Shown here: positions 2,154 through 63,641 of the stretch, in pieces
Layout of the letters: each line of letters opens with the position of its first letter
Numbering within the stretch: the first letter of the stretch is position 1
NCBI RefSeq assembly: GCF_030684315.1
Contig: NC_081391.1
Location: 20,544,629-20,608,628, forward strand
Reading direction: 5' to 3'
DNA from: Stegostoma tigrinum
Lineage: Eukaryota
Length of the DNA stretch: 64,000 bases
Notes under the pieces: model-generated
The model's input: the letters and a program-made list of their open reading frames with translations, nothing else
Databases searched by the model: none
What the model was told of the DNA's origin: nothing
Translations under genes and position numbers: made by a program

Positions 2154-3083
<930 letters not shown>

Positions 3084-6523: not shown

Positions 6524-10894
<4,371 letters not shown>

Positions 10895-10963
10895 CTTCAC
10901 TATTCCTGCTCACAACCAACTAGACAGCTCCAGAACTAAGCCTCTCAGGCACAAGCTCTTGCA

Positions 10964-11040
10964 TTTATACTCCTGGAACATCCTGTTCTCAATCAGAGAA
11001 TGATGTCACCAATGATCATTGACAACCCTTGATAGCCAAT
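10964..11040 (-). promoter_or_regulatory. Core promoter of ferritin copy 2 (TATA box plus inverted CCAAT boxes)
   Basis: TATAAA at 10964-10969, 70 nt upstream of ATG; CCAAT (+ strand) at 11009-11013 and 11036-11040; conserved in copies 3, 4, 7, 9. Confidence 0.8.
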
Positions 11041-11859
11041 CAGGAATCTCCCATCAACCCAGGCACTAATTTTAGATAGGGAATGGTGTATATACAGCCA
11101 GGGCCAAGCAGCGCAGTGGAACAGAAGTAGATCGAGATAATTTGAACCATGCAAACAGGAGGAGGTCATTCAAACCATCAAACCTATTTCACCATTTAGT
11201 TGGATCTTGGATGGCTTTTTTAAATCATAGAATTGTAGAATCACTATCATAGAATCTTGTATCTAAATGCTGTGTAACACACCTATCTTCCATACACACA
11301 TTACTCCCTTCACTTTAACAAATGATCACTAATCTCAGTTTGAAATGTTCAATTGAGTCAACGTTCACTTAAGCTTTTGAGACAACGATGTCTAGATTTA
11401 TGGTATTCTTTATGTGGGAAGTGAAGGAAACCTAAATGCACATCTCTCTATTCAAATACCAGGGTCATTTCTAAATGTGACTCTCAGGACCATGTACAGG
11501 CTCCTGGGGAAAGATTGCCATAGCTTTGCTGTTCAATGTAGATAGTCATGTGCTCTCCTCTACCCTTACCAATTCCAAACCATTTCTGAGGATTTATTCC
11601 ACAGGCTTCACTTTCTCACAGTTATTTTATGGACTCTTGTCTGCAATGGAATTTGTTGTAACTTTCCTCAAGGTGAAACGGATAGAATTTTCTAAAACAG
11701 ATATTCCCAATATATCTCGGGAGATTCAAACTTGAACATAATATTGAACACTATTGCATCTGTGTCTGCCCATCTCTTGATGAAGCGATACACCTCTCAT
11801 CAGTTCCAGAAGAAGTCAGTGATACTGATATTAATACACCTGTTGAAGGATGTTAAATA

Positions 11860-11985
11860 AAAACTGAAAGAACCACGGATGCTGTCAGTCAGACATAAAA
11901 ACAGCAATTTCTGTAAAAGCTCAGTAGGTCTGGTAACGTCTGTGAGGAGAAATCAGAGTTAACGTTTTGTGTCAAATAACACTTC
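11860..11985 (-). mobile_element. Penelope-derived short element, family B, partial
   Basis: Matches the arm of the family-B elements at 37350-37560 and 44581-44710 (GATGCTG...AGAAATCAGAGTTAACGTTTT). Confidence 0.6.
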
Positions 11986-12781
11986 CACAGAACCTCCTCC
12001 CTGCTGTGGGAGGCTCACCAAATGCGAGATGTTAGCTCTGATTTCTCAACTGAGGAATATTGACTTGCACCAAATAGTTTGCAGTCAATCTGTGAGTGAA
12101 AAAGTTGGTGAAATGGAAAATGCATTGATGAGATGCCTTGTCCAGAATCCTACAATTTTAAGTGGACCTGTTCGTTGCTAATGACAAACATCAACAAGTC
12201 TAATGTTCTGTTCCTTTTACAAATGTTCACTTTATTCTGAGAGGTATTTGTGAGACAAGATTTAACATTTGAAATTTGGAGAGTCTTGGAACAGGACTTG
12301 ATCCTTTCTGCTTTTATTCATCCAATACATTGTATGTCCCTTGGACAGTGCGGGTGCAGGTAATAGTTCCCACCATTTGGCATCTCTCATGACAGGCATC
12401 TTAAAGTGGTCAATACTAAGCCAAATAAGTGGGTCGAAACAAAACCTCCTTTCACTAATTTTGTGAACAATAGGATTTTGATTGTAAGCAGTCAGCTGCT
12501 TGACCGTTGACACAAGGCCATGTCTAATGTGGTTACAACTACTGGGCTATTTGTAGCCAACCTGGAGAGGGCTTGCCAGAGCAGAGGGAGGGACACACAT
12601 TCGGGTCAAGAGCTGAAATTGAGGAAATCATGAGTTCAGAGGCAGCAATGGCCATCGGGGAGTTGGTGTTGTTCCAGTTGTACTCTATGTTTTTTTTAAG
12701 CCTCAAAGCAATAGTGATGATGGCCTCCCATTACACACTGCCTATCACTATCACAAACTATCCCCATTTGCAGCTGTTTCA

Positions 12782-12998
12782 GAGATAGTACCCACTGCAG
12801 ATGCTGGAGAATCTGAGATAACAAGGCGTGGAGCTGGATGTACACAGCAGGCCAAGCAGCATCAGAGGAGCAGGAACGCTGATGTTTCTGGCCTAGACCG
12901 TTCTTCAGAAGAAAGGTCTAGGCCTGAAACGTCAGCTTTCCTGCTCCTCTGATGCTGCTTGGCCTGCTGTGTACATCCAGCTCTATACCTTGTTATCA
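12782..12998. mobile_element. Palindromic Penelope-derived short element, family A, hammerhead core degenerate
   Basis: ~90-bp inverted arms centred near 12905 (GCTGATGTTTCTGGCCTAGACC...GGTCTAGGCCTGAAACGTCAGC). Confidence 0.8.
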
Positions 12999-13019
12999 CA
13001 TTTACAACTATTCAGCTTC

Positions 13020-15075: not shown

Positions 15076-17997
<2,922 letters not shown>

Positions 17998-18070
17998 CTT
18001 CACTATTCCTGCTCACTACTGCCTAAACAACACCAGAACAGAGTCACTCACTTTCCCCCAAACTCTTGTA

Positions 18071-18226
18071 TTTATACTCATGGGACCATCCTGTTCACAA
18101 CCAGAGAACGGCATCACCAATCATCACTGACAATTGCTGACAGCCAATCAGGAATATCCTATTAATCCAGCGTCCAATGAAAAAGGAGAGGGTGTTATGG
18201 GGATGGGGCTGAGACCCAGAGCCAAT
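18071..18226 (-). promoter_or_regulatory. Promoter of ferritin copy 3: TATA box plus four inverted CCAAT boxes
   Basis: TATAAA 18071-18076; CCAAT at 18117, 18144, 18174, 18222. Confidence 0.82.
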
Positions 18227-21426: not shown

Positions 21427-21638
21427 TGTGTGGAGCTGGATGAACACAGCAGGTCAAGCAGCATCTCAGGAGCACAAAAGCTGATGTTTCGGGCCTAGAC
21501 CCTTCATCAGAGCTCTGATGAAGGGTCTAGACCCAAAACGTCAGCTTTTGTGCTCCTGAGATGCTGCGTGGCCTGCTGTGTTCATCCAGCTCCACAATTT
21601 ATCTTGGATTCTCCAGCATCTGCAGTTCCCATTATCAC
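21427..21638. mobile_element. Palindromic family-A element with back-to-back hammerhead cores
   Basis: ...GGGCCTAGACCCTTCATCAG AGCT CTGATGAAGGGTCTAGACCCAAAACGTCAGC...; ~85-bp inverted arms centred at 21512/21513. Confidence 0.88.
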
Positions 21639-23041: not shown

Positions 23042-25680
<2,639 letters not shown>

Positions 25681-27940: not shown

Positions 27941-30900
27941 ATGGCCTCTGAGAGAAAAACAATTGTGAAAAGCCCTCAGCCCTAATACCCCTATGGCAAA
28001 TGGCATACAACTCTACACTCAGTTTCCAGTGAGAACGAGGTGCCCACAAAGCAGCTTGACTGATTCGGACTCTCCCACTACTGCAGACCCCTCCCAGACT
28101 GTGATCACTCCAATTTGGCTGGAACACTGACACAATCTCCAAAATCCCCAACAGCACGGCTCCATCCTCTGTTGAATGCAGGCCTGAGTCAGGCCGACCA
28201 ATCCTTTCCCACTTTCCATCTGTAATGCCAGTTCTTTCTCTTATGATAATCCTTAATGAAATAACATCAGTGCATTTACTGAGGCCATTCTGCTGAATGG
28301 TCAGTGCTTAACAGCCTCTTTGATCTGGACAGACCAGCTCAGTGATGTTATTTCTCACCATCCAGTGCTATGAATGGCAGTCGTCTGGCATCGCATGGTT
28401 CTTCAATGACCCACTCCTTTCTCCAGTTAGATGCCATGATGGTGGTTATCCTGTGCCATTGTTCTGATCATATCCCAACTTCCAACCCTGTTACCATCAT
28501 CAGTTCTGTTCTGATATTGAAATATCTGAATTTAACACCTTGAACATCACATGCATACGCTTGACGTTTATTCACTGTACTCATATCCATGAGGTTTGGT
28601 ATTTATTCCCAATTTATTGCATGAAGTTCAGTCGGAGGGAAATCTGATCTCACAACAGCATGGGGGTTTTTGTTTTCAACTGTTCTGCCGATTTGGAAGG
28701 AGAAAATGAAAAACAGCTGACTTCCGGACATAGAACATTTTTTTAATCAAAATAGAAACCGAGTGTTTTAATTTTTAAAATACATTTTCTTCAATGAGTT
28801 CTTTGAGTTGTCCTTTAAGGGCCATTTAAAATTCTATTTCTTGGAATGTAGATCGGCAGCCTCTCATTTCGACTCTCACTGTACTTCAGTTTGTGTATCT
28901 ACACTGGTTTGCAGGCTAACGGCATTCTCTGTGTCAATGTTTGTGGGATGCTCCCATGATTCAATTTGTAGTTTACACAATGAACACATTTAGTCTGGTA
29001 TGCGTGCCTTAATGTAACTGTCTATTTCACACAACAGACTGACTAAACCGTCTCTGTTAGAGAGAAAGCAGTAAAAAGCAGATACTTTTATGCTGGAAAA
29101 TCACACAGTGTGATATCATGCAGCTATTTCACAAGTACAGGACTGTCTGGAAACTGCTGAATGCAACAGGAACAATTGATAGAGCTTTTTCACAGGATTA
29201 TTTGAATTTGGTGGCAGCACCTGTCAGGAGAAGCAATAGTGACAAGGCTGGTGATGAATAAACTAGAGCTGGCAAGTAATGCAGTCTCATTTCTGAATTT
29301 TGACACAACAGCAGGTTGTGCCTGAAACCTTCGCCAGGAGATGCAAAGGAATTAACTGTCGATAAATGAATTTTATTACACCTACTGCATTTCTCAAAAT
29401 TCCTGAAACCTCTGAAGACACTGGATAATTACAGCTGCAACGTCAACTTTCAAATCTATGCGTAGGGGGCTATTGCAACAAATGGAGATTGAACATCAGC
29501 TGGAAAAATTGATCCACAATTGGGTGTAAAAACTAATTCACATCAATACAAATTGATGGAGCATTTGCTGCTGTTTTGTCAAAAAGGTTTGAGACCAATT
29601 TTGTTCAGACACAGAATGGTGGAAGTTGACTTTGATATCAGGTTTTAAGCTGTTGTATGTTTATAACCAATTCACCTGGTATCAAGTGATTGAGGCAGAG
29701 TTTGCCAGATACATGTCACCCTGTAATATTGGGAACTAGCTCGAAGAGGATGTGGGTTAAATAAATTTGATAGACTGGAATCATTGCACACTGGATATTT
29801 CTTTGCCTTGGTAACCAGTGGCAACAATGGCTCAGCTTCTGATCTAGCCAAAATTAGTATTGTTCAAGTGAGGCAACTCGTGGTATGCTGACTGCTGTGT
29901 TGCTGGGCTCACTGAAATGTTGGCTGCATTCGACATCAACCATAAGATAGAGCTGTCAATCCTGTGATCTAGTACTAGTCACCTACTGTGATTCTTGTTC
30001 CAGAATTGTAAGAGGACATGGCAGAGATATGGGGGCAATCCCTTGTACTCTGCAGACTGACAACCAAGCAGTTGCTGCTCAGCAAAAACTAAATCTCAAG
30101 TGTTTTGGTATTTGACCAAAAGTCTCATTAAGTTTAATTTCAGTTGATAGGGCCTTCTCTGAAGCTTGCATTGTCTGAAGGAATGGATTCTAACTAGGAT
30201 TTGTTATGTTACCCTGATACCGCATTCACTCCCTGCACTGAAAATTTAGCGCCAGGCTGTACTGTGCTATGCACTGCAGAAACTCACCAAGGCTCCTCAG
30301 CGCCTTCCAAAACTGAGGCCACTTCCATCGAGAAGCAAGGCAGGCAACAGATATAAGAGGACAGCACCACCTGCAAGTTCCTTCCAAGCCATTTGCCAAC
30401 CTGCCTTGGAAGTACAGTTCCTTGGTGAAAATGTATCAAATCCTTCAAGAGTATGGCCCCAATTGTTGAAAGCAGCAGCTCACCTTGAGGACACTGGTCC
30501 ACACAGTGAAACCCACAGCCCAGTGGGGAAAGTGTTCCCATCAGCAGGAACAGAACTAAAACAGGATCAAGCTACAGCACAGCTCTCAGCAACGATTAAC
30601 CCAGAAAGAGAGTCCATTATTGACCAGTCTATTTACACTTGGTGCAGGGCAATGAGCTGCTTCTACAAAAGGATAAGTCTCTACAGGTCTCCCATTCAGA
30701 CACATGACAACAAACTCACTCCCTGCAGGCAGTTCAGTCACTCTCCCCCAGGGTGAGCCTGTCAAACAGGTACTTTCCCATGCCATTGTCAGGGGCTCCC
30801 AGTCTCTTCAGGTTGGTGATGTGATCTCCCAGCTTCTTGATCATCTTCACTTGCTCATCCAGGTAGTGCCTCTCCAGGAAGTCACACAGCTGGAGAAAGG

Positions 30901-31089
30901 AAAAATGAATTGAAGACGTGGTTTCTCTTGGAAGGGTTCATTCCTCTTGAATGAGGGGAAGCGAAAACAGCTGATATAATTCTAGTGTAGCGAAATTACC
31001 ATACAGACCCCAAATCCAGAGATGTCACGATCCTGGATCAGATGTACAGCATAAGCAGACACTTCAGTGTAAATTATCCACAAATAGAT

Positions 31090-33110
31090 TAGTTTAATCT
31101 AATCCCATTTACCACAATTTGGCCCATATCCCTCAACCGCTTCCCCCCCGCTCCCCGCCCCATTCATATACCCATCCAGATGCCTTTTAAGTGTTGTCAT
31201 TATATAAGCCATCGCTTCCCAACACTCATTCCAGACACAACCTTGTGTGGAGAGGTATCCCTTAGATCTCTTAAATCTTTGCCTCACCTTAAACTAATGC
31301 CCTTTAGTTTTGGACTCCGCCCTGGGGAATGTTCTGACTATTTCTGTAAACATGCCCCTCAAGGTTCCCGCATCCCCACCTCAGCTCCTGACACTCCAGG
31401 GCAATGCTCCAGCCTACTCAGCCTCTCCCTGCTGTGGCACCACCCTTAAAACCTTTTGAACCTTTTCAAGTTTCAGAATATCCTTATTAGCTGGGGATGG
31501 GAATCACGTGTTGTATTCCAAAGTGGAATAACCACTTGTGTGCAGCCACACCATGACTTCACCTACTATACTCAAGGAGCTGACCAATAAAGCCAAGCGT
31601 TCCAAGTCCTGATCTGTATTTCCAAAATCCAGCACCTCACATTTATCTAAATTAAATGCCATCTCCCACGCCAGCCCATTGAGCTATCTGATGGAGATCC
31701 AATTGCTCTAGGTGCCCTTCTTCACTGTCCAATACACCTCCATTTTGAGGATATCTGCAGACTTACTAACCATACCTCACATCTGAATGATACAGGACGA
31801 AAAGCAGCAGGCCCAGCATCAAAGATAACGGGAACTGCAGATGCTGGAGAATCCAAGATAACAAAGTGTGGAGCTGGATGAACACAGCAGGCCAAGCAGC
31901 ATCTCTGCAGTACAAAAGCTGATGTTTCGGGCCTGGACCCTTCATCAGAGCATCAATCCTTGTGACACTATTGGTCACAGGTTTCCAGTCTGAAAAGAAC
32001 CGCCCACCACTACCTTTTGTCTACCTGAGCCAGTTCAGTATTCAAATGACTAATTCTCCCTGTATTCCATATGATGCAGCCTTGCTTACCAGTCTAGCAA
32101 GAGGGATTTTGTTCAATGACTTACTGAAGTCCATTTGGATCACACCCACTTCTCTGCCTTCAATCCTCTTCATTATTTCTTCAAATGAAGTTAGAGACAA
32201 TTTCCCATACAAAGCTGTGTTGACTATTCCTAATCAGTCCTTGCCTTGGCAAAGGACTTAAAATCCTTTCCCTCAAACTTGCCCAACACCAAATGTCAGA
32301 CTCATTGGTCTATAGTTCTCTAACCTTTCCTTACCACATTAACCTCCTATCTTTAGATAGGAAATTTGATAGCAAATGATACAACTATCTCAGCAAGGGG
32401 CCCAGCAATCACTCCAGATTTCTACGGTACAGCTACTTAGGTCCGAAGGATTTGTCCACCTATGTGTTTTAAGATGTCCAGCACCACCTCTGATGCTGAG
32501 CTCTTTCAAGATATCACTATTTTCCATGTTCTACATCTTCCACAAGCTTCTCCACATTAAATATTGTGGAAAAACACTTGTTTAGTATCTCCACAGCTCT
32601 TGGGACTCCACACATAGGGACACTTTTCTCCTCAAGCTTTTTGTAGAGTCCTTTGGATTTGCTTTAACCCTATTTGCCAAAGCTTTCATGTCCCCTTTTT
32701 GCTGTCCTGATTTCCTTCTTTAGAACATAAAGGCAGTAAGAGTATACTTAGGCTGATGCCCATGCCTGATGGATGTTTCCTTTCATTAAACCTCAATTTT
32801 TCTTGTCATCGAGCATTCCTACACCTATCAGCCTTGCCTTCCAACCTAACAGGAACAGTGTCTCTGGGCAATTCTCATTTTTGAGAGCTTCCCATTTTTC
32901 TAGCCATCCTTTACCTGCAAAGGTCTGTCCCAGTAAGCTTTTGGAAGTTCTTGCCTAGTACCTTCTAAATTGGAAGGTGGCCAATTTTGACTTTTTTTAA
33001 AGGTAACTGGTTTCTGCTTTTCCATCACTATTTTGCAAAAAACAAATTTATGGTTCCTGGCTCTAATAATATGCTCCCCCACTGACACTGCAGCCACCTA
33101 CCCTGGCTTA
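31090..33110 (-). mobile_element. Long degenerate CR1 LINE in intron 3 of copy 5
   Basis: Reverse-complement similarity to CR1 ORF2 (ORF 31099..31287 GCVWNE...LKRHLDGYMN); explains the 2.5-kb intron. Confidence 0.7.
31823..31948 (-). mobile_element. Family-A short element (126 bp) with 8-bp TSD, nested in CR1
   Basis: AGCATCAA at 31815-31822 and 31949-31956; minus strand starts exactly at CTGATGAAGGGTCCAGGCCCGAAACATC. Confidence 0.85.
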
Positions 33111-33119
33111 TTGTATCAG

Positions 33120-33246
33120 TGATAATGGGAACTGCAGATGCTGGAGAATCCAAGATAATAAAATGTGAGGCTGGATGAACACAGCAGGCCCAGCAGCATC
33201 TCAGGAGAACAAAAGCTGACGTTTCGGGCCTAGACCCTTCATCAGA
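33120..33246 (-). mobile_element. Family-A short element with intact hammerhead core
   Basis: Minus strand CTGATGA-AGGGTC TA GGCCC-GAAAC GTC at 33218-33245. Confidence 0.85.
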
Positions 33247-34194
33247 CCGTGCCTTATTGCCCTTGTTAAGGTCCAGTCGGCCAAAAGCCCTCAAGAGCCT
33301 GGTTATCAGATCACAAGCAAGATGTTTACTCAAAAATAGTACTGAATAGCCTCAGGTGCTACAGCCCAATTTGTCCAAAAGCCCACATCAGGAACTCACA
33401 CGAGGGTCTGTGTTGCCAGAGGTGAGTTTGTGCAGATCCAGCAGACTCTGGTTCACATCCTTCTCCATCTGCAGAGCTCTCTGCATTGCCTCCAGACCAT
33501 TGCCCCACTCACCCTGCCCTGGCTTCTGGAGGGAGGGAAGAGACAGATGTGTCACTATATCAAAAATGAGCGAAAGATAATTGGAAAGTTGTGCATTATA
33601 GCATTACTGCATTACCTCAGGGGTACTTATGTTTCAAATCCATGTCTAGCTCAGGTGGTTGTAATGTAGGAGGATAGACCAATCTTGATGTCCTGCAGGA
33701 GGACGCTGCCTTCACATTCATTCTGGAATGCCATCAGTTTCTCAGAGTGTTCCCATTCCACGTATTCCTTGAAGAACTCAGCAAAATGACACAGAGCCAC
33801 ATCATCCCGGTCAAAGTAAGACGACTACAAAAGAATTCAAACTGCATGAATATTGTACCGATACAGTTAAAGCCAGCCGACTGAAGATACAAGCTTATTT
33901 ACTTCACCAAACTGCTGGAGCAGTTATCTTCAGCAATAATACCCAAAACTGAAATTGAAGCCAAATTACATATCGTTGAGCTTCATAACTAGAAACTTAG
34001 AATGAATTTTGGGCTTGTTGTTTAGAAGCTAGATAACCACCAGTACCCCTATTGGTGAACTCCACAAACCAGACCAGCTTGTACCCCTTCCTGAAGGGGA
34101 GTTAACTACTAACTACATTTAATTTTAGATGTAGAATAACTAAAATTACTGTAACCAGTTTAAGGCTGTAATTAGGCTCTTTCTAAATTCCTAG

Positions 34195-39203: not shown

Positions 39204-40944
39204 GTCCTGCAGCTTTTCTCTGTTTCAAGTGGCCAACAGCAGAGTGGGGCTGTAGTGAAATGTCCCTTTTCTAGGCCATGACTAATATGGGTTGATCCAG
39301 TCAACTAAAAGGATGACAATGTGAGGACAAATTGCCATTAATACAAAAAGGGTACTTTCCTTGCTGAGGCTGGATCATACTATTGATGCAAGACTCTCCA
39401 AATCCTTGGGATACACAGTTGGTATAAAGTTTACCAGCAAATGCTGCATGCAGCTTCTCTCCAGGACCACACAGGCAACTGTAAAGTTGTGGAAGAGAAG
39501 CAGGCAGTCAGAGTGACACCCAGTTCCCCCAACATGCCACCTGAACTCCACGGACCGGCCTGCACCCTCCTGCTCCAACAGCATGTGCCGACACATCCTG
39601 CCAAAATAACATATTGCTTATTTAACCAAAACATCCTTTGGCTGAGCCATACATTTCTCCCTCAAAGCTCCACATCCTGTGCCAATACATTTGGTGGCAC
39701 TGTGGAAATGCAGTAAGTCCTTACTGATATCTGTAATGACATGGTATGTAATGGCATACCCTGGAGCAGGTGGGACTTGAACCCTCTAACTCAAAGGTGG
39801 GGACATTACTCGTACAGAATAAGAGCCCCAGTACAGGCATTTCTAAGCAACCTGCTCAAGTGTGATAAGGCACACCTCTGGAAGAGATGGGGCTGGAAGC
39901 CAGGCCTCTGGGCTCAGAGGTAGAGACCCTACCACAAGCGCCCCAGTGCATCTTTATATTTAGTTTTTGGAAAGTTTACAGTTTATAAAACACATGGTCA
40001 AATATTTCGGACTTTCCTGTGATAATCATCCAATCAGAATCTATCACCAAAATGTTCCCTGGTCCAAAATATCCATTGCATCTTGTAATTGGTGACTTTT
40101 GATGAGAACAGTGCTCCGATTGGTTATTGGGAGTGATCAATTACCAGCTGAACTAGGAGCCTTGCTATTAAAGGTGGTGCTAGCCATATTAGGCTAAATA
40201 TACAAGCTGAGAGTTAGGATACTGTGTGAGTTTCTTCTGTTAGAAATGGCCTCCTAAGTGTGTCAGAGCTACCACCAGGACTGTGAGGATGCTGTTAACA
40301 AGCAGATCAACCTGGAGCTCCATTCCTCTTATGTTTACCTCTCCATGGTGAGGCTTGTGGTCCTGTGACTGTATTCTGGTAAAGTTGGGAGTTTCCTTGC
40401 TCCACTGAGGTGGTTTTAAATTTATCTTAGTTGTGGGCTTGTTGGTGAGATCTTAAACAGTGAATGCCTTCTGATGTGTGACAATGATGTTTGAGTTATT
40501 AGCCTCCTATTTGTAGTTGGTGTCTTTTATAAACTGATGTTTGAAATGAAACTAAATCTGCCTGAAGTGATGACTGAAGGTAAACCTAGATAAATCTTCC
40601 TTGCTGAGACCAGGCTGTCACCAAAGGATAAATCTCCAGTGAAAAGCACTCTTCACTAATCTCCATTTGTCTTTGAATCCTGTTTGAAAATGAATACTTC
40701 TATCTGTGTCAGTGGAGGTGAATTTGCAGCCTGTTCTTAACAAAACAGGATATACTGATAGGGGCAAGTCAAGGGATTAATGCAGACTGACAGAATTCCT
40801 TTTGCTGCAGAAGTGCCTATGCTGGCTCTACTAGATAACACCAATACCCTGCCTTCATGTGCTATCCAAATCATTCAATGGACCAACTGAGCCTACCTCC
40901 TCTGCCATATTCTGCAGGCTCTATTCCACTTTCTAATTATAATC

Positions 40945-41347
40945 AGTATCCCCATAGTGTGGAAACAGGCTCTCCAGCCCAACAAATCCACACTGAACCT
41001 TGGAGCAGTCTTGCTATGACCCATCTCACCTATACCTCCCTGACCACTACGGGGCAACTTAGCATAGCCAATCCACCTAACCTACATGTCTTTGGGTTGT
41101 AGGAGGAAACCTACACACAAGGACAATCGTGAAAACTCCTCAGTTGCCTGAGGGTGGAATTGAGCCTGGATCCCTAGTGTTGAGACAGCAGTGCTCTCTG
41201 ATGAAGGGTCTAGGCCCGAAACGTCAGCTTTTGTGCTCCTGAGATGCTGCTTGGCCTGCGTGTTCATCCAGCCTGACATTTTATCATCTTGGAATTCTCC
41301 AGCATCTGCAGTTCCCATTATCTCTAGTGCTATCCACTGTGCTGCCC
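40945..41347 (-). mobile_element. HE1-like SINE interrupted by a family-A element
   Basis: SINE body 40945-41195 resumes at 41326-41347. Confidence 0.75.
41196..41325 (+). ncRNA. Family-A short element (130 bp) carrying a minimal type I hammerhead ribozyme core
   Basis: CTGATGA(41198-41204) AGGGTC TA GGCCC GAAAC GTC(41225); TSD AGTGCT at 41190-41195 and 41326-41331. Confidence 0.75.
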
Positions 41348-42335
41348 ATTTTCAGATTACTTGCTGTTTTGTTTCCATTTCTCTCTCTCTCCTTGCAACC
41401 TTTGCTACTTTCTTGTGGGTTGGACACTCTCTTATATTAGAATGAAATGTAACTATTCCTGAAAGCATTTGTCCCTGCAACTTTTGATCACTGACAAACC
41501 TTGTGAATTCCTTTAGTGGAAGGTGATCACTTTCAGTAACTTAGGAGCTACATCAGTGTATGTCAAACAAAGCACAGACTCTGAAATAATGGTCTTAAAC
41601 CTAGTAGCATCTGTGCAGAGAGTTCACTAGAACTTTGTTTAGGTCCTCCAGCTTTCCATTGTATATTGAGGCTCAGGTGTAACTAGAATTCTATTCCTTT
41701 CTATCTACTTGCAGTTATCTATCTTTGACCGGGATGATGTTGCCCTGTGTCACTTTGAGTTCTTGAAGGAGCAGTCCCATGAGGAAAAGAACATGCTGAG
41801 AAACTGATGGCATTCCAGAATAAACGTGGAGGCCGAGTCCTCCTGCAGGACATCAAGGTTAAATTTGCTTCAGATATATTCAAAAAATTCTGAATTGGGT
41901 TTAATGTAGCAATTGTATTATGATTGCTTGTTTGTGTAAATATGCAGTTTCTTTTATTCTTTCAATTGAGAGAAATACCTGCCCCTTTGCACCCCCCTCC
42001 AGAAGCCAGAGCAGGATGAGTGGGGCAATGCAGAGAGCTCTGCAGATGGAGAAGGATGTGAACCAGACTCTGCTGGATCTGCACAAACTGGCCTCTGACC
42101 ACACTGACCCTCATGTGAGTACTTGGATGAGGGACTACTATCCTTGATCTCTCAACTCTTGCTTGTGATTCTTTTTGGTTTTGGGTGAAGGACTTGGGAT
42201 CAATGCACACTTTGGCACAAAAACCTTCAATAACTACCAGTTGATGATCCATTCTTCAAAGGGACCTCCTTTCCAGAACTTGAAACTTTGATTCTTTTGT
42301 TGGTCACTACTTAGTCATCCATCTCTGCTTTCTAG

Positions 42336-42488
<153 letters not shown>

Positions 42489-44580
42489 TGAACTGACTGC
42501 AGGGAGCAAGTTTAGTGTTATGTACTTGTATCAGTGAGACCTTGTGGTGCTGGGTGATCTGGCTTTAGTGAAATGCTCAATGACTGTCTGAATAAATTGA
42601 TCAGTTTAGACTGGAGTCAGTCCTGTCTTTTCATGGTTGTTTTTGGTTTTTCTCACTCCAAGACAAGACAGTGCTCTAATTAGAGCCAGTGTGATTGTTC
42701 TATCATGGAGCTCACAACACTTCTGCCAACAATTTTTTTATTTGCCAATCAGTTGCATTTCTAGTACACTCTTCTTTCTTGGAGAATTTGTCTGGCAAAC
42801 CTGATGATGAATTTGATTCTATTCTTACTGAATAGAAACTGCTCTACCTTTTTACCAGCACTTGCAATATTTGGCTGGCTTCCACTACAAACAAGACTAG
42901 CTCCTCGAATATTCCAGGGCAAGGGATGAGTTTCTCAGGCATGGCCTCAATAGTGAGGTTTTTAGGTCTTCCTGACGATGCTACTTGCCAACTGAGTGAA
43001 CTGTTCGAGAGTAGCACGAATCACTGCTTTCACAGCTGAGCCACTGCCCTGAACAAGCAATGGTCCCCTTTTGGGAGGGGATGAAGTAGGTTTTATCTCT
43101 TTTGAGAAAGGGCAGGAATTGGCTGGGGCAAGCTTTGTCCTTACACTTAGTGGAGTATAGATCTGTGGGATGTTCAGAATGATATCAATGAAAGGCAAAC
43201 TCACTTTTACTAGGTCACGCCTACAGACTACCTCAGTAGTGACGAAGTGATACAACATGCAATCACATGGTTTTTTTTCCTGGAGGACTAGTCCTTGCTC
43301 AGAAGTGCCCAAAAGAAACAACAGATTCAAGGAACTAGGACTAAGACCTTCCATCTGATCCAAAGGGACCAGCATCTTGAGTCTCGCGTGTCAATTGCCA
43401 TTATCACTCAACATAATGACTCGAATGTCCTATTTTTCTGCTTGTCATAGAATACTCTGTACAGATTTTTTTTATTCAAACTTAGCATTTTTGCACTTAC
43501 CTCTCATTTCTAACCTGTGTTGCATTATAATCTCTTCTTGTAGAAGCTTTGATTTTAAAAGAGAACCTCTGGTCAACTGAAGAATTTGTGGTCAAATTGG
43601 ATCCTTTGAAAGTCCAAATTCATTTCCTTTGGTACAAAGGATGGACAGATAAAGAAGTGGAATGACTTGATCGTCCCTTGATTGTTTTGCCCCCCCTCTG
43701 CCTGGAGCCATTATGAATTTGGGAACCTCATCCAAGGTCTGGTCCTCCCAATCATCTGATCTAGGACTGAACCAGTTTTGAACTGACAGTAGACATTAAC
43801 ACCTGGGATCTCACAGAAACTGTCACCCAAGGTTTAAAAAAAATGAGGGGGAGAAGAGAAATTGTTAGGAGCCATGAGAATAACCTGGAAATCACTCTCT
43901 GAAAGATGGTGATACTAATTTTTAAAAAAAATTGGATTTACTCAAAAAAAGCAAAGACATTTGCAATGCCATCAGGAGAGAGCAGGGGAATGTAAGGAGT
44001 TACATAGTTCGCAAAAAGCCAGCACAGGCACAGCGTGAAATGGCCTCCCTTTGTGTTCTACGATCAATGGTGAGCCACAGACTTAGAGCATCAACATTCT
44101 CATCTCTTCTTGGTATGTAGCTAACCCAGAATATGTATTGCCCATCTATAATTATCCTTAAGATTGTGGTGCTGAGCTCCAGCCTTCAGCCATTGCAGTC
44201 CATGTGCTAACCAACAATGTCCTCAGGGAGGGAGTTCCCGGATTCTGACCCAATGACACTTCAGGAACAGTGACATATTTCCAAGTCAGGATGGTGAATG
44301 GCTTGGAGAGAGACTTGCAGGGGCTGGTGTTCCCATGTATCTGCTGCACTTGTCCTTATAAGGGATACAGGCCTTGGATTTGGAAGGTGCTGTTGAAATG
44401 GCCTGGGAGAGTTACTCCTGCGCAACTTGGTAGATGGCACCCAATCACTGGATGGTGGGAGGCAATGTGGATGGGATGTGAATAAAATGGTTGGCTTTGC
44501 CATGAATTTTGTCAACATTGTTGAGTGCTGTTAGCTGCTGTAACTAGTCAGGTAAGTGGAGTGTATTCCATTAGTCTCTC

Positions 44581-45581: not shown

Positions 45582-45688
45582 ATTGGTGCCTGGATTGGTG
45601 AGGGATTCCTGGTGGTGATCCCTGATAGCCGATCAACGTTGGTGATACCCTTCCCTGTTTGAGTGCAGGATGCTCCCAGGAGTATAAA
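45582..45688 (+). promoter_or_regulatory. Promoter of ferritin copy 7
   Basis: ATTGG at 45582 and 45594; TATAAA 45683-45688; homologous to the promoters of copies 2 and 3. Confidence 0.72.
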
Positions 45689-46847
45689 TATAACAACCTG
45701 CAGGTGAGAGGCTCAGTTCTAGAGTTGTCTCCAGGTGATAGGGAGCAGGAATAGTGAGGATGGCCTCCCAAGTGCATCAGAACTATGCTAAGGAGTGTGA
45801 GGCTGCTGTTAACGAGGAGATCAACGTGGAGCTCTGTTCCTCCATTGTGCACCTCTCCATGGTGAGCTGTCTTCCTGTGACTCTCCTCAACTTTTTTCTC
45901 CAATTGAATAAAATAACTATTATACTTGTTTAGACTGTTGGAGTCTGTGAGGGGAAAAATTTAAACAGTGAATTACTCCTAGTGATTGTAGAGTGACTCA
46001 GTTGCTATTTGTCATATCTCCTCTATTCAGTGTAAAAAAAAAAAAAAAAAAAAAACCAAAGTAACAATCATTACAAAGGCTGTACTTGTGGTAATGTCCT
46101 TCCTATTGGGCCTTCGAGCCGAGGTCCAACTTCTACCTGCTCCAGATCTTAGAATAGGAACTTTTAGTTTGTTTCTGAGCACGTGTCTGAATGCTTTACT
46201 TTCGAATAGTCGGGGAAAGGAGTTCTCGATGGGATGACTGATCAACACAAGGTGGTTATGTTCTTTGATTTTTTGCTACTTTTGAAATACTAAAACTTCC
46301 TTTAGAATTGTTTATCTTGCACATTAGCCTATTGTGGGTTCAGCATATTAGAATTTTGACAGATGGCTGAGTTTTTCTTTTCTCCACCTGTAGTAGAAGG
46401 CATTTGTCCAGTGGTCTAGTTTGATTTGTTGCAGTCCATCTGAGATGAAACTTTACTATTTCCAAAGACTCGGTGAACAGTGTCTCACTTTTGATACAAA
46501 ATGAAGTCTAGGCACTCCTGTCAGCTTTTTGTTTAGAGGAACAAGTGAGTTCAAAGTTATAAAACTAGCTGCTATTTTTCTTCCGCAGTCCTTTCACTTT
46601 GACAGGGATGATGTTGCCCTCCGTCACTTTGCTGAGTTCTTCAAGAAGCATTCCCAGGAGAAGCGGGAACAAGCTGAGAAACTGATGGCATAACAGAATA
46701 AATGTGAAGGCTGAGTCCTCCTGCAGGACATCCAGGTTGGGTTTAGTGGAATGACTTGCCTCCTGCCTGGATTACCTTTAGTTTTTCATAAATTTGTTTG
46801 AAATGAATTTTAAAACAGCAGTGTGGAGGTGATGGCCTAGCAGTATT

Positions 46848-49525
46848 CATAAATCGAAGAATGAGCAGCGGACGAAGTGACGAGGACCAGAGGCGCAGCC
46901 GGGAAGGAAAGCAGTGACCGTATATATCAGCAAGGCAGCTAAACCCGAGACTCTACAACTGTAGTGTCACCCACCTGCCCTCCTCCTCTAACCTAGTTAA
47001 TAAGGTAAGGTTCATGCTAAACTTTCTCTATTGAATATAAGCTTGCTATTAATTTTATAGCAACTTGAACTGAGCTTTCTACTTTAGTATTGAGTGGGTG
47101 ATCAGATAAGTGGGATATGGATGCTAGGGCAGTTGCTTGCTCCTCCTGCAGAATGTGGCAGGTGGGAGACTTGGCACACGTCTCCGCTGGCTACATCTGA
47201 GGGAAGCACACCCAACTCCAACTCCTTAAACTGTGTTAGGGAAATGGAGCTGGAGCTGGATGAACTACTGATCATTCAGAAGGCAGAGGGGGTAATTGAG
47301 AGGAGTTACCGGGAGTTGGTCACTCCTAAGGCTCAGGACAAGGATAGATGGGTGACAGTTAGGGGGAGGAAAGGAGACAGACAGACACTGCAGAGATCCC
47401 CTGTGGGCATTCCCCTCAGCAATAAGTATACCGTTTTGGATACTGCTGGGGGGATGACCTACCAGAGGAAAGCCATAGTAGTCAGTTCTCTGGCACTGAG
47501 CCTGACGCTGTGGCAAAGAAAGGAAGGGGGAAGAGTAGAAAAGTACTCATGGTAGGGGAATTGACAGGAGATTTTGTGGTCAGGATCGGGATTCCCGGAA
47601 GGTATGTTGCCTCCCTGGTGCCAGGGTCCGGGACGTCTCTGATCGGGTGTATAAGGTTCTAAAAGGGGGGGGGGGGGGGGGGGGGGGGGGGGAGGGCGAA
47701 CAGCCAGAAATCATGTTACATATTGGTCCTAATGATATAGCCAGAAATAGGATTGAGGATATAAAAAGTAATTTCAGGGAGTTAGGATGGAAGCTGCAGA
47801 GCAGGACGAACAGAGTAGTGTTCTCTAGTTTACCACCGGTGCCACGAGATAGCGAGGTGAGGATCGGGGAGCGGGCGCAGCTTAACACGTGGCTGCGCAG
47901 CTGGTGTAGGAGGGAGGGCTTCAGATATGTAGATAATTGGGATGCCTTCTGGGGAAGGTGGCACCTGTACAAGAAGGATGGGTTGCATCTGAACTGAAGG
48001 GGACCAATGTCCTGCGTGGAAGGTTTGCTCAAGTAGTTCGAGAGGGTTTAAACTAGTATGGCAGGGGGGGTGGGAACCTGAGCTGTATACCAGAGGTGAG
48101 CGTTGATGCAGGTGAGGCAGTAGCAAGAGGTAGACCAGCTAGTGGGAAGGATTTTCCTGGGAAGGAACCAAGGGATCGGTTAAAGTGTGTTTGCTTTAAT
48201 GCAAGGAGTATCAGGAATAAAAGTGATGAACTTAGAGCATGGATCAGTACCTGGTGCTATGATGTTGTGGCCAGAACAGAGACATGGGTTTCTCATGGGC
48301 AGGAATGGTTGCTGGATGTTCCAGGGTTTAGAACATTTAAAAAGAATAGGGAGGGGGAAAAAGAGGGGGTGTAGCACTACTAATCAGAGAGGGTATCACA
48401 GCTACAGAAGCTTCCTTTGTCGAGGAAGATCTGCCTACTGAGTCAGTATGGGTGGAAATTAGGAACAGCAAGGGAGTAGTCACCTCGTTAGGGGTTTACT
48501 ACAGGCCCCCCAATAGCAGCAGGGAGATTGAAGAAAGCATAGGTCGGCAGATTTTGGAAAAGTGCGGACGTAGTAGGGTTGTTGTAATGGGTGACTTTAA
48601 ATTTCCTAATATTGATTGGAACCTCCTTCGAGCAGAAGATTTGAATGGAGCTGTTTTTGTAAGGTGTGTTCAGGAGGGTTTCCTAACTCAGTACGTTGAC
48701 AGGCCAACGAGGGGAGAGGCCATTCTAGAGATGGGCTGAGAGGTGGCAGATGGAGTTCAACCTGGATAAATGCGAGGTGATGCATTTTGGAAGGTTGAAT
48801 TTGAAAGCTGAGTACAGGATTAAGGATAGGATTCTTGGCAGTGTGGAGGAACAGAGGGATCTTGGTGTGCAGATACATAGATCCCTTAAAATGGCCACCC
48901 AAGTGGACAGGGTTGTTAAGAAAGCATATGGTGTTTTGGCTTTCATTAGCAGGGGGATTGAGTTTGAGTCGTGTGATCTTGTTGCAGCTCTATAAAACTT
49001 TGGTTAGACCGCACTTGGAATACTGCGTCCAGTTCTGGTCGCCCTATTATAGGAAAGATGTGGATGCTTTGGAGAGGGTTCAGAGGAGGTTTACCAGGAT
49101 GCTGCCTGGACTGGAGGGCTTATCTTATGAAGAGAGGTTGACTGAGCTCAGACTTTTTTCATTGGAGAAAAGGAGGAGGAGAAGGGACCTAATTGAGGTA
49201 TACAAGATATTGAGAGGCATAGATAGAGTTGATAGCCAGAGACTATTTCCCAGGGCAGAAAAGGCTAACATGAGGGGTCATAGTTTTAAGCTGGTTGGAG
49301 GAAAGTATAGAGGGGATGTCAGAGGCGGGTTCTTTACACAGGTGAGAGCATGGAATGCGTTGCCAGCAGCAGTTGTGGAAGCAAGGTCATTGGGGACATT
49401 TAAGAGACTCCTGGACATGCATATGGTCACAGAAATTTGAGGGTGCATACATGAGGATCAATGGTCGGCACAACATTGTGGGCTGAAGGGCCTGTTCTGT
49501 GCTGTACTGTTCTATGTTCTATGTC
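46848..49525 (+). mobile_element. CR1 LINE with 5' UTR, ORF1 (zinc finger plus SGNH esterase) and internally deleted ORF2
   Basis: ORF1 starts MDARAVACSSCRMW at 47117, with HIGPND and DGLHLN esterase motifs. EN motifs FNARSI, YYRPPN, MGDF..PNIDW, RPTRGEAIL are fused at ~48728 to the RT C-terminus (FNLDKCEVMHFG, VRPHLEYCVQFWSP). (GTTCTAT)n tail. Confidence 0.95.
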
Positions 49526-49642
49526 CTATTATTGTACTATGAATCCAGAAACCCAGATAACAGCTGAGGGACTGGGGTTTGAATTCCACCATGGCAGATG
49601 GTGGAATTTGAATGCAATAACTTCGGCAAAGAAGCCTAATGA

Positions 49643-49953
49643 TGGGTGGCTCAGTGGTTAGCACAGCTGCTTCACAGTACCAAGGGCCCAGGTTCAATTC
49701 CACTCACAGATGACTGTGTGCAAATGCCACACAGACATTCTCTCCCTATGTTTGTGTGAGTTTGCTGTGGTTTCCTCCCACAATTGCAAAGATGTGTGGC
49801 TTCGGTGGATTGGCCAGGCTATATTGTCCTATAGTTTCTAGGGAGTGTAGATTAGGTTGGTTCTAGGGGATAGGCCTGGGTGGGATGCTCTGAGGGTCAG
49901 TATACACTTGTTGGGCTGAAGGGCCTGTCTCCACACTGTAGGGGTTCTATGAT
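49643..49953 (+). mobile_element. HE1-like tRNA-derived SINE
   Basis: GTGGCTCAGTGGTTAGCAC...GGTTCAATTCC...GTTCTATGA. Confidence 0.85.
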
Positions 49954-51696
49954 GACTGTGCATTTGCTGCCAATTGTTTGGGAGGGGGGAACCAAATGGG
50001 TCACGAATGCCCTTTTTAGTGAAATAAGCTACTATCCTTACCAGGTCTAAACTACATCTGACTCCAGACATGCAGCAATGTGGTTGATTCTGAACTGCCC
50101 TCTGGGCAATTGAGAATGGGCAATGAATGCTGACTAGCCAGTGATGCCCTCATCCTGTGAGTGAATTTTAAACAACAACTCTACCTTGTGACCTTTGTTC
50201 ACTGTAAACATTAAAGATAATTCAGTGTTTCTCTCTCTCTGTTGAGACTGTGGTGCTTGTTCTTTCTCCTGTCCTCCCTCCAGAAGCCAGAGCAGGATGA
50301 GTGGGGCAGTGGTCTGGAGGCAATGCAGAGAGCTCTGCAGATGGAGAAGGATGTGAAACAGAGTCTGCTGGGTCTGCACAAACTCTCCTCTGAACTCATG
50401 GGCCCTCATGTGAGTTTCTCCTCTTTAAGAAGTTTTCTTTCCCTTTCATGCTTGCAATCCAGGAAAGCACTATCAGGAATTACAGGAGAAATTCTTTCCA
50501 AAGCTTGGAAGCAAATGATCTTCCTGTGCACTCGAGCAGAAAAGATTTTTCTCAACAGCCATCTGCACACTGTTAAAACTATAACAGTATCACCTGAGCG
50601 TACCTCTCCATCAGTGTGGCTGGGTGATGGTCACATCTGAAATGGAAGATTACTTTCAAATAGCTTTTTGATTCTGTAGAATAATTTTGACTTTGTTTCT
50701 CCTGCTGTGTGACTTCCTGGAGAGGCACTACTTGGATGAGCAAGTGAAGACGATCAAGAAACTGGGAGATCACATCTCCAACCTGGAGACACTGGAACCC
50801 CCTGCGAAGGGCATGAGAGTACTTGTTTGACAAGCTCACCCTGAATTGAGTGGGCTCAATAAACTGTTTGTACAAGGTGACTTCATTCGAGTGAAAGAAT
50901 TTGGTTTGTGCCCTGAACAGAACTAAAATAGTATTCATGATCAAACTGAGTACTTCATGTAATTTCACATCATTTGGCTCTTGAATGTTCTGGCTGTTTT
51001 GCATCTGGTTCTGTTTAGTCCTTAAGCTTTTGGTCTCATCCTAAAGCAATAACAACCCATGTAGCTAGCTGATATTTGAAGTAATTCTTGTTGTGGAATT
51101 TCCATGGCTGCTTAAGCTTTTTGATTTGGAAGCAATGCTCGTTCCCCTGATGGTTTTGTCTTGTGCTGAGTGGACTGATTTTTAAGAACAACCTCTGGTC
51201 CACAAATCAATCAACAGTCTACATGTTAAACACCTAACTGGTGCTCTGTCCCTGGCAATGATTGAATCTCTAAAATTTAAAAGAACAATGGACCCTGAAA
51301 ATACGGACAAAATCAAATTCCTTGGATTGGCTCAACAGGTACAGCAGTGCTTTGGAGAAATCCGTTCTCAATGGTCCCCAGCTGAAATATGGACTGATTT
51401 ATCTCTACAAATGCTGCTTGACCTGGTTTTATTTCTAGCAAAGGGTCTTAGTTTAATCATTAACATCTACTGACTGCAGTCGGTTCGAGTTCCCCCAACA
51501 GGAATAAAAATGATCACAATTGCACAATACACTGTTGTGACTGCTTTTGGGTGATTGTTAGCTCATTGTTTCCAAGGTAGGGAATTCAGTTTCTCTGCTG
51601 GCAGACTTTCTTGCTGCACTATCAAGCCTGCTGTTTTCCTTTTCAGCCCATTTTTTAAAAGAATAAAGAGGCAAAAAGTAGGTGAGTGACTGTTCT

Positions 51697-56124: not shown

Positions 56125-57320
56125 TTTTCTTACTTTGACCGGGATGATGTTGCCCTGCGTCACTTTGCTGTGTTCTTCAAGGAGCAGTACCATGAGGAGC
56201 GGGAACATGCTGAGAAACTAATGGCATTCCAGAACAAACGCGGTGGCCAAGTCCTCCTGCAGGACATCAAGGTTGGATTCTTGATCTTCAAGTTGGCAGG
56301 TCTGTGAGCTGACTAGTACACCTCTATCTGTTGAGCTTTAGGACTGAGTAAATGCTCTGAATGGTAGGTTACTCACTGAAACAAAATATGGCTTCATTTT
56401 GAAGGAAATGCCTTTTTTCTTGTGTTCCAAGAGCAGTAGGCAACTGAGATGATCCAGAATACTGGATGGTGAGGAAGTGTAAACAATCAGGCCACAGAAG
56501 GTAAGACTAGATTTCTAGGAGAAGAAAGCAGCAGCTTTCAGCCTTGCCTTATCTAGATGTTTCTAATGTTGTGATCAGAACAATTCCAAGGCATAGAATA
56601 GCAAAGCAAGGAATTACTTCCATTGGTACCTATTCTCCCACTGTAGGATATGCTTAAACTTGCTCTTTCAGAACCATGTGAAATCTAGAGGTTGTTTGAT
56701 GCCAAAGTAAAGTTGGTCTGAAGTACCTCCCTACAATGATGACAGACAACTAACTGATCAGATGTAGACTAATGATCCAACTGCCTACTGAGCTGTGCTT
56801 TGTTCCTGCTTCCCTCCCTCCAGAAGCCAGAGCAGGATGAGTGGGGCAATGGTCTGGAGGCAATGCAGAGAGCTCTGCAGATGGAGAAGGATGTGAACCA
56901 GAGTCTGCTGGATCTGCACAAACTCGCCTCTGGCCACACAGACCCTCATGTGAGTTTCTTTCACTTCTAAATGGAGGAAAAAGTTCTAGTGTACTCACTA
57001 GAACATCCAGTTACCTTCTCACAGCCCCCTGCAGGCTGTTAAAACAGCCTTTCAAAGGCATTACCCTGAGTGCACCTCCACATGGTGGTGATGGTCACAT
57101 CTGTTGTGGGAGATCACTTTCAGACATCTCTTTTTGATCCTTTTGGATACTTTTTTCCTTCCAGCTGTGTGACTTCGTGGAGAGGCACTACCTGGATGAG
57201 CAAGTGAAGATGATCAAGAAGCTGGGAGATCACATCACCAACCTGAAGAGACTGGGAGCCCCTGACAATGGCATGGGAGAGTACCTGTTTGACACTCTCT
57301 CACTAGGGGAGAGCGACTGA
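56125..57320 (+). CDS. Ferritin copy 8: intact exons 2-4, exon 1 not found (partial gene or pseudogene)
   Basis: Exons 56125-56271, 56824-56949, 57165-57320, GT-AG, open frame, ends [15 protein letters not shown] 57421-57426. No exon-1 homolog seen between 50.9 and 56.1 kb. Confidence 0.78.
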
Positions 57321-61987: not shown

Positions 61988-62132
61988 ATTGGCTCTGAAT
62001 CTCAGCTCCTCCTCCACATCCCCATCTCCTTTGTTCATTGGTGCCTGGGTGGATGGGCTATCCCTGATTGGCTGCCAGTATAATTGGTGACACCATTCCC
62101 TGGTCGAATGCAAGATATCTCAGCAGTACAAA
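61988..62132 (+). promoter_or_regulatory. Promoter of ferritin copy 9: four ATTGG boxes, variant TATA (TACAAA)
   Basis: ATTGG at 61988, 62037, 62067, 62083; TACAAA 62127-62132 at the TATA-equivalent position. Confidence 0.72.
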
Positions 62133-62201
62133 TGCCAGAGGTTGTGGGTGTGAGGTTTAATTTGAGATTAGTCTAGGTTATAGTGAGTTGGAATAGTGAG
62201 G

Positions 62202-63641
62202 ATGTCCTCCCAAGTGTGTCAGAACTACCACAAGGACTGTGAGGATGCTGTTAACAAGCAGATCAACCTGGAGCTCTATTCCTCCTATGTTTACCTCTCC
62301 ATGGTGAGCCTGGTGCTGCATTCTGAAATTTATTTGGGCTGTGTTCTGTTACACTTCAATTGATGCCATTTTGTTAGGAATTGGGAGCTGGTTGTTAGTT
62401 GTGTCGTTCATGCTTTTAGTGAGGAATGATGTTGAAGTAACTGTTGGTTACTGCACCTGACCTGCATTAAGACCTGATGTACAAAGCCCTTAACTGGGCT
62501 CTTGTCTACTCCTGAGCTAGGAAGCCTGGGTTCAAGTTCTGCCTGTTCCTCAAAAACAATACTTTCCGATCCACTCGTTTGGGAGTTTTATCTGGCCCTA
62601 ATTCAACTAAGGTCATATAACATAGTGGCAACCAAGTTGAAATTCCTAGACAAACCCATTTAGTCAACAAGTAACTGGTGAAATGTTGGGGATTCCCATG
62701 GGCTTGTTAAATCTGTTTGAAAGTTGCTCCTTTTATGTCTATTTACATAGAATGTGCTTCACTTCCCCCAAAGAGCTTTAATGCACCAAGCTGCTTTCTA
62801 AATCCCCCAAACCCAGTGAGATCCTGTGCCTGAGCTGTTCAGCAGCCTCTTGCACTGACTTTAAAGTTCCTGGCCACATTTTAATGGTTGAGCAAAGTAT
62901 TAAATCTGCAGGCTAATGGGCAGATGGTCCTCATCTTATAATAGTTTCAGTTATCTGAATACACAGATTTAAGCTGCTATCTTGACCTGAATGAGATTCA
63001 GAAATTGTAGAAGTGAAATTGAACCATCCCTATCTTTTGGCTGCTTTTTGTCTATATACCTGGAGGAAGTTTCAGATTTCTTTCTGTTTTCTGGTTCTTA
63101 TTGATTTTAAAGAACAGTCTCTAACAAGCAAAAAAAATCCAAATCTAATTATTAAATAAACATGCTGTCATTGGTTTTTCTCCTTTCCAATAGTTCTCTC
63201 ATTTTGACCGGGATGATGTTGCCCTGCGTAACTTTGCTGAGTTCTTCAAGGAGCAGTCCCATGAGGAACGGGAACACGCTGAGAAACTGATGGCATTCCA
63301 GAATAAACGTGGAGGTCGTGTCCTCCTGCAGGACATCAAGGTTGGTGTATCCTCCTACATTGTAATGACCTGAACTAGATATGGATTTGAAGCTTGAATT
63401 CTGCTGGGGTAATGTTAAATGGCCCACACTATTCCTAGATACCTTTTTTCAATCTCATTGCTTTGCACTCCCCCTTCATTTTTCACTGAAACATCTGTCT
63501 CTTCCCTCCCTCCAGAAGCCAGAGCAGGATGAGTGGGGCAATGGTTTGGAGGCAGTGCAGAGAGCTCTGCAGATGGAGAAGGATGTGAACCAGAGTCTGC
63601 TGGATCTGCACAAACTCTCCTCTGATTGCGTGGACCCTCAT
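62202..63641 (+). CDS. Ferritin copy 9, exons 1-3 intact; exon 4 presumably beyond the window
   Basis: Exons 62202-62303 ([15 protein letters not shown]...), 63194-63340, 63516-63641; GT-AG; open frame. Confidence 0.92.

Follow-up and report, generated by a model that had tools for sequence, protein, structure and literature searches.

At low iron, IRPs bind an iron-responsive element (IRE) within an mRNA's 5' region, and initiation is blocked. Vertebrate cytosolic ferritins are normally IRE-bearing, as a first, sequence-only reading of the locus described here had stated, and fish agree with this rule: in the accessible part of PMC4117605, an IRE is present in each of the five salmon ferritins of H and M type, and fish ferritin transcription is linked to inflammation. 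IREs are already present in sponge ferritins and absent from most atypical invertebrate ferritins, as far as the available text of PMC8395497 goes. Snail yolk ferritin is without an IRE in the portion available of PMC10799875; in Biomphalaria and Lymnaea this protein is tied to egg provisioning and exists beside an ordinary soma ferritin. Among mammalian paralogues, the accessible text of PMC7760355 places FTMT outside IRE/IRP control and describes mouse Fthl17 as a germ-line cluster of six genes. Additionally, according to the available part of PMC1488847, zebrafish follicles are rich in ferritin mRNA, and the eggs of amphibians and snails contain ferritin.

The closest described system is that of the Greenland shark. 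The available part of a preprint (10.1101/2024.09.09.611499) reports 179 FTH1 and 155 FTL copies, about 80% of which lie in three clusters syntenic with the white shark. More than 85% of the copies are full length, synteny has been conserved for about 250 My, expression is tissue-specific, and that of the largest cluster is described as ovary-specific. In the accessible main text the word 'iron' occurs 0 times, and nothing was found there on IREs or promoters; a second preprint (10.1101/2025.02.19.638963) gave 0 matches for ferritin, FTH or iron. The Greenland shark clusters are, like the locus examined in this paper, tandem multi-copy ferritin arrays, and they almost certainly represent the same family. 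A later Greenland shark paper reportedly describes an expansion of FTH1b. Array expansion and ovary expression are thus known, and the IRE-less short-leader promoter and the separate clade identity reported below were not found in print; our literature search, whose coverage most subscription journals fall outside, turned up no publication describing shark ferritins that have lost the IRE.

Nine ferritin copies in the window

The window, meaning the whole 64,000-nt (64-kb) stretch of Stegostoma tigrinum DNA that was analysed, contains 9 ferritin copies according to six-frame and blast searches, 5 on the minus strand and 4 on the plus strand. The first exon is present in 6 of the 9 copies, and a complete intact reading frame in 3 (copies 2, 3 and 4), for which exon models give canonical splice sites and proteins of 175, 173 and 176 aa. 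Copy 2 (6524..10894, minus strand) is intact, with exons at 10894-10793, 7854-7708, 7565-7440 and 6676-6524 and an AATAAA signal 103 nt past the stop. Copy 3 (15076..18076, minus strand) is likewise intact, with its TATA box at 18076 and exons at 17997-17896, 16446-16300, 16148-16023 and 15222-15076. The frame of copy 4 (23042..25680, minus strand) is intact and its TATA box is lost, so that just 2 of the 3 complete intact copies retain the box; its protein is identical over 176/176 residues to P0250 (XP_059496459.1, Stegostoma tigrinum).

The remaining copies are incomplete or damaged to different degrees. In copy 1 (2154..3083, minus strand), the promoter and exon 1 are absent, the start of exon 2 is damaged, and exon 3 carries a frameshift. 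The DNA just upstream of its exon 2 (3261-4390) matches 18920-20021, which lies 0.9-2 kb upstream of the copy 3 ATG, at 74% over 1164 nt; this match indicates that the promoter and exon 1 of copy 1 were lost by deletion. Copy 5 (30734..33824, minus strand) has a shortened exon 2 with a lost donor. Copy 6 (40195..42491, plus strand) is a pseudogene with TAAATATA at -51, a stop at codon 4, and frameshifts in exons 2 and 3. Copy 7 (45683..50830, plus strand) retains the TATA box and exon 1 (45760-45861); exon 2 contains two stops, and exon 4 is frameshifted and has lost its acceptor. Copy 8 (56125..57320, plus strand) has intact exons 2-4. Copy 9 (62127..63641, plus strand) has intact exons 1-3 (62202-62303, 63194-63340, 63516-63641), its exon 4 falling outside the window. 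Neither blastn nor tblastn found an exon 1 belonging to copies 1, 5 or 8 in the window. Copy 7 keeps its TATA box and exon 1 (45683-45861) and copy 8 its exons 2-4 (56125-57320), both on the plus strand; a read-through transcript splicing the former to the latter is possible.

The closest relatives of exon 4 are carpet-shark ferritins, at 96-98%. In run X1, exon-bearing bins reached summed contig depths of about 950-1650 versus 20-35 in unique bins, which fits many copies and is not an estimate of copy number. Public sequencing of one sample comprises 4 runs, whose contigs also cover introns. In each of the 4, one contig covers 10884-11966, differing in 2-16 letters; the junction between the copy 2 promoter and ATG, being spanned by one contig in every run, is therefore not an assembly artefact.

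Apart from ferritin, the window carries a high-copy repeat of about 220 nt with a long internal inverted repeat (12782-13000, 21429-21636, 22653-22860, 60475-60697). It has very high contig depth, gives spurious Rfam miRNA matches (12850-12965, 22718-22826, 60544-60660), and is probably a SINE- or MITE-like element. Eight non-ferritin open reading frames showed no Pfam match. Two plus-strand reading frames (48928-49440, 60988-61446), likewise unmatched in Pfam, resemble the C-terminal part of reverse transcriptases encoded by CR1/L2 LINEs.

A compact promoter and a short predicted leader

In copy 2, the stretch from TATA to ATG occupies 10895..10969 on the minus strand. The TATA box lies at 10969-10963, TATAAAT opening with the T at 10969, and the ATG begins with the A at 10894, so that 10895-10969 is exactly 75 nt. 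The sequence-only reading had quoted this stretch, which is present letter for letter, and had put 70-75 nt between TATA and ATG in copies 2, 3, 7 and 9. The layout holds, with offsets of the box from the ATG of -75 in copy 2, -79 in copy 3, -77 in copy 7 and -75 in copy 9; the distance from the end of the heptamer to the ATG is 68-72 nt. The wording needs correction in that the box of copy 9 reads TACAAAT and copy 7 is a broken gene. If transcription starts about 30 nt past TATA, an assumed textbook spacing, the predicted leaders are 45-49 nt long, within the 40-50 nt proposed earlier, and contain no upstream ATG.

Alignment of the six upstream regions shows one homologous promoter of about 300 nt, in which several inverted CCAAT boxes precede TATA. 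In copy 2 the proximal promoter (10970..11130, minus strand) has ATTGG at -146 and -119, and homologous sequence is found in copies 3, 4, 7 and 9. ATTGG or CCAAT was counted 21 times in -280..-81 versus 3.6 expected, the counts coming from 6 homologous copies and not being independent; the excess of promoter motifs is beyond chance. Identity among five copies rises toward the ATG through 0.46, 0.47, 0.53, 0.56 and 0.62, compared with 0.44 for random sequence: it is 0.46-0.47 at -600..-281, 0.56 at -180..-81 and 0.62 at -80..-1. In copy 4 (25681-25780, minus strand), CCAAT boxes are present, TATA is mutated and the leader is shortened, and this copy may be silent or start elsewhere.

Copies 2, 7 and 9 have no acceptor-like AG in their leaders, the pyrimidine fraction there being at most 0.59 versus 0.65-0.94 in 24 true acceptors. 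An AG at -25 in copy 3 (0.71) and one at -2 in copy 6 (0.65) fall inside the range of true acceptors. Comparison of five leaders revealed no shared structure (0 of 12 predicted pairs with two-sided change, -1.7 kcal/mol), and the copy 2 leader is able to pair with the start of its own coding region at -16.6 kcal/mol. The cytoplasmic polyadenylation element is absent from all 4 of the 3' UTRs checked. Zebrafish zona pellucida genes offer a parallel for CCAAT-driven oocyte promoters; a literature search for such promoters in fish found no paper.

Search for iron-responsive elements

At the gathering score, the Rfam search gave 0 matches in the whole 64-kb window. With the threshold relaxed to E<=10, none of the 22 matches in the window was an IRE, nor was any of the 4 matches obtained when 10700-12000 was searched separately. 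Both strands of the 64 kb were also scanned for hairpins with a C bulge, a 5-pair stem and the loop. Only 5 weak matches appeared, at 13657, 36931, 56665, 1999 (minus) and 34703 (plus); they have at most 4/5 upper pairs, and none is inside a leader. A CAGAGG hexamer is present at -66 of copy 9; it falls before the start predicted for transcription, and no IRE stem accompanies it.

For positive controls, 11 loci were fetched from metagenome contigs, and the 9 with long ferritin matches were used. Rfam recovered IRE_I in 2 of these 9 ferritin loci and the hairpin scan recovered an IRE in 3, which indicates that Rfam alone misses some IREs. The difference is due to L008:1395-1432, a clear IRE with 5/5 upper pairs before a ferritin gene, which was missed at the Rfam gathering threshold. 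A covariance model was built from the 3 control IREs, 2 of them identical. It gave 6 matches in the window, the best of 19.1 bits at 19168-19203 (plus); this match is antisense to the upstream DNA of copy 3, has no CAGUGH loop and was rejected, so that the model contributed nothing credible. Scores near 19 bits are weak for this model, as a partial match in control locus L001 reached 18.1.

The absence of an IRE stated in the sequence-only reading is borne out, for the 6 first exons present here, by Rfam, the hairpin scan and the covariance model with their controls. No IRE was found near any of the 9 copies, and since all 64 kb are without one, any upstream exon bearing an IRE would have to sit outside the window.

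The same layout in a basking-shark gene model

In the basking-shark gene model P0064, which starts upstream of the promoter, the promoter itself is translated. Its N-terminal extension contains YKYKSLG, seven residues that translation of the copy 3 TATA region also gives, and its normal start lies 23 codons (about 69 nt) after the first Y of the translated TATA. No back-translation of this stretch yields an IRE core with more than 3/5 pairs. As a control, a translated IRE was found in 20 of 28 N-terminal extensions of at least 40 aa among the FTH1-type proteins first listed as matches. N-terminal extensions were found in 14 of 341 proteins, and TATA is reached in P0064 alone. The 19-residue extension of sawfish P0078 could encode an IRE-like core with 4/5 pairs and is for this reason uninformative. 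This one gene model suggests that the short IRE-less leader is older than the split between carpet and mackerel sharks. Moreover, near-identical full-length ferritin arrays are present in many shark orders, and H-like and L-like ferritins are found together on one chromosome in relatives.

Protein features

The ferritin domain PF00210 was recognized in P0250, the protein identical to copy 4, at 134 bits versus a cut-off of 24.5. For the ligands, we take the ferroxidase and 3-fold-channel positions from frog and human numbering. E24, Y31, E59, H62 and E104 are kept in 4 of the 4 copies checked, and D128, E131 and Q138 in the 3 complete copies. Residue 141 is Met in copies 2, 3 and 4, Ser in frog H, Asp in frog M and Ile in the shark L-like protein P0095; P0201 has Asp at this position. 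Catalytic activity is not assured because residue 141 is Met, and Met141 may tune the kinetics of iron oxidation. P0007, which is 94% identical to copy 2, aligns over 1-175 with a frog M chain, its best PDB match. Read from sequence, the array proteins are 173-176 aa long and, with P0007 colinear with the frog M chain starting at residue 1, they contain neither a leader nor an insertion. By their sequence, the array genes are cytosolic ferritins of the ferroxidase type (H-like).

Several known ferritins share part of these features. Like snail yolk ferritin, the shark array has no 5' IRE; in the available part of the source (PMC10799875), however, the snail protein carries both a signal peptide and an insertion of 42 aa, whereas the shark proteins have neither by sequence and their genes are tandem-amplified. 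The array resembles teleost and amphibian ferritin M/H' in its 4 exons, its 176-aa length and its best PDB matches, which are frog M-type chains, but the salmon genes have IREs, while the shark array forms its own clade with Met141 and no IRE. Mammalian FTMT and FTHL17 are likewise vertebrate ferritin paralogues with restricted expression; according to the accessible text of PMC7760355, however, FTMT is an intronless mitochondrial retrogene without TATA or CCAAT and FTHL17 is without ferroxidase activity, whereas introns, TATA/CCAAT and ferroxidase ligands are all present in the shark genes.

Two further observations concern public protein records. Shark gene models of 264-304 aa in one ferritin cluster of several species (P0009, P0314, P0316, P0318-P0319, P0321-P0322, P0324, P0326-P0327) could be annotation fusions of adjacent copies or real 1.5-unit ferritins. 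Three vertebrate-type ferritins (P0359, P0315, P0461) are labelled bacterial, likely as a result of contamination.

Family tree and conventional ferritin genes

Two trees of 61 and 45 rows were constructed from hand-picked matches, with broken copies 1, 5, 6 and 7 and teleost M excluded. The window copies fall in a clade made up of elasmobranchs only, with support of 98/98 and 95/97 in the two trees, the deep branches being weakly settled. Its members come from Chiloscyllium, Stegostoma, Cetorhinus, Mustelus, Heptranchias and Pristiophorus. The clade stands apart from FTH1, from tetrapod M-type chains, from the shark L-like clade, and from a clade with about one gene per shark species. The FTH1 clade (97/95) contains the fth1a genes of Callorhinchus, skate and sawshark and no window copy. 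The fth1a of Stegostoma itself (P0454) is on another contig of 64 Mb, and a single H/M-type gene (P0466) and L-like genes are located on the array's own contig of 26.9 Mb. A single shark gene distinct from the array is a candidate M orthologue. Because a separate fth1a and a single H/M-type gene have been kept, the array appears to be a specialised side branch and not a shark-wide loss of IRP control over ferritin. The Greenland shark preprint labels its copies FTH1 and FTL, whereas in the present trees the H-like proteins of the array branch apart from the FTH1 clade; array members may be misnamed when called FTH1 duplicates.

Selection and probable gene conversion

In all 6 pairs compared, dN/dS was moderately low (0.31-0.52, from 14-26 changes per pair), and dS at silent sites was 0.06-0.12. 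Across 7 copies, damaged ones among them, identity at third positions of exon 4 is 95%; the corresponding figures are 66% for intron 2 and 56% for random sequence. Since exons are far more alike than introns, even in broken copies, exon-biased gene conversion is indicated, and dN/dS is weakened accordingly as proof of function. Decay is also evident, with 5 of the 9 copies broken or without exon 1 and a sixth without TATA.

Discussion

The preferred reading, to which we give a probability of roughly 0.6, is that of an IRE-less array driven by transcription and gene dosage, which has lost IRP control and most likely serves as an iron store for eggs. An old elasmobranch tandem array with a compact CCAAT-plus-TATA promoter would produce mRNA with an IRE-less leader of about 45-50 nt. 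As such a leader has no IRE, IRP1/2 would be unable to shut off translation of the array at low free iron, and output would be set by tissue-specific transcription together with gene number. With protein output following promoter activity and gene dose, apoferritin could be made before iron arrives. The tissue would most likely be the ovary, either oocyte or follicle, and expression of this kind is presumed for Stegostoma. There the array subunits, probably together with L-like subunits of the same cluster, may build up a large reserve of iron for the yolk-rich egg and the embryo. Storage that responds to iron in the ordinary way would presumably fall to fth1a and the single H/M-type gene, both separate from the array, in which IREs are presumed. 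Because IREs are known across a range that runs from sponge ferritins to the H and M chains of fish, the simplest account of why the array has none is a derived loss. Some findings weigh against the preferred reading: just 3 of the 9 copies are complete and intact, 2 of them with a TATA box; dN/dS is only moderately low; no cytoplasmic polyadenylation element was seen in the 3' UTRs checked; residue 141 is Met; AGs in the range of true acceptors occur in copies 3 and 6; the sawfish extension could allow an IRE-like core; and shark ovary samples include epigonal tissue.

Several claims of the sequence-only reading have to be narrowed in this light. It had let the whole amplified family escape IRP control; the data cover six 5' ends of H-like copies in this window and one informative gene model elsewhere, and the family has well over 100 genes in at least one shark. 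It had also named both oocyte or yolk loading and immune iron withholding as purposes. The former fits the ovary expression given for the Greenland shark in the accessible preprint text, whereas the latter has no direct support. That the array would act independently of cellular iron does not follow, as transcription or turnover could still respond to iron.

The data also bear on other explanations. The array could be the product of birth and death with little special function, in which chance removed the IRE once, in one duplicate, the exons are held similar by conversion, and the majority of copies are weak or dead. The many damaged copies and the difference between exon 4 third positions (95%) and intron 2 (66%), by which exon conservation may reflect conversion more than selection, are in its favour. 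Nevertheless, we consider it unlikely, given the near-identical full-length arrays in many shark orders, the conserved TATA region in the basking shark, and the full-length proportion above 85%, the synteny over about 250 My and the tissue-specific expression described in the available part of the Greenland shark preprint. It is quite improbable that immune tissue, such as the epigonal organ or leukocytes, is where the array acts, in withholding iron or in defence against oxidation, with the ovary signal arising from the surrounding epigonal tissue. The shark ovary is indeed enclosed by the lymphomyeloid epigonal organ and ovary assemblies contain immune transcripts, as stated in the accessible text of PMC5568229, and the inflammation-linked transcription of fish ferritin (PMC4117605, available part) points in the same direction. 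The preprint, however, describes the expression as ovary-specific in its accessible text, and the available part of PMC1488847 records abundant ferritin mRNA in the oocytes of fish as well as ferritin in the eggs of amphibians and snails.

Retention of IRP control would require either a distant start that splices in an IRE-bearing non-coding exon or a non-canonical leader hairpin that binds IRP. The weak acceptor-like AGs of copies 3 and 6, the pairing of the copy 2 leader with its coding start, and the one clear control IRE missed by Rfam could be cited for this idea. It is nonetheless very unlikely, as no IRE-grade hairpin exists on either strand of all 64 kb, CCAAT and TATA are conserved at fixed spacing, and the leaders have no shared structure.

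The preferred reading of an IRE-less, dosage-driven array can be extended to a more specific proposal, which we hold tentatively and at somewhat below even odds. Sharks and rays may possess a vertebrate 'yolk ferritin' convergent with that of snails: an array of great age, with some hundred or more genes that contain introns, which has discarded the IRE, adopted a CCAAT/TATA oocyte promoter with a short leader, is kept uniform by exon-biased conversion in the manner of histone arrays, and encodes a separate subunit class with Met141. Oocytes would in this way bank iron for months of embryonic blood formation at low labile iron.

The expansion of shark ferritins has been reported and left unexplained, and loss of the IRE would give it a concrete logic. 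With IRPs in control, a higher copy number would bring little more protein before iron had already risen; without them, dosage and the tissue promoter would set the store. To judge from sequence, vertebrates may have in this array a natural example of a cytosolic ferritin that contains introns and lies beyond the control of IRPs. It also advises caution against treating array copies as FTH1 duplicates in arguments on longevity or ferroptosis, and it bears on how iron may be supplied to the very large yolky eggs of these animals.
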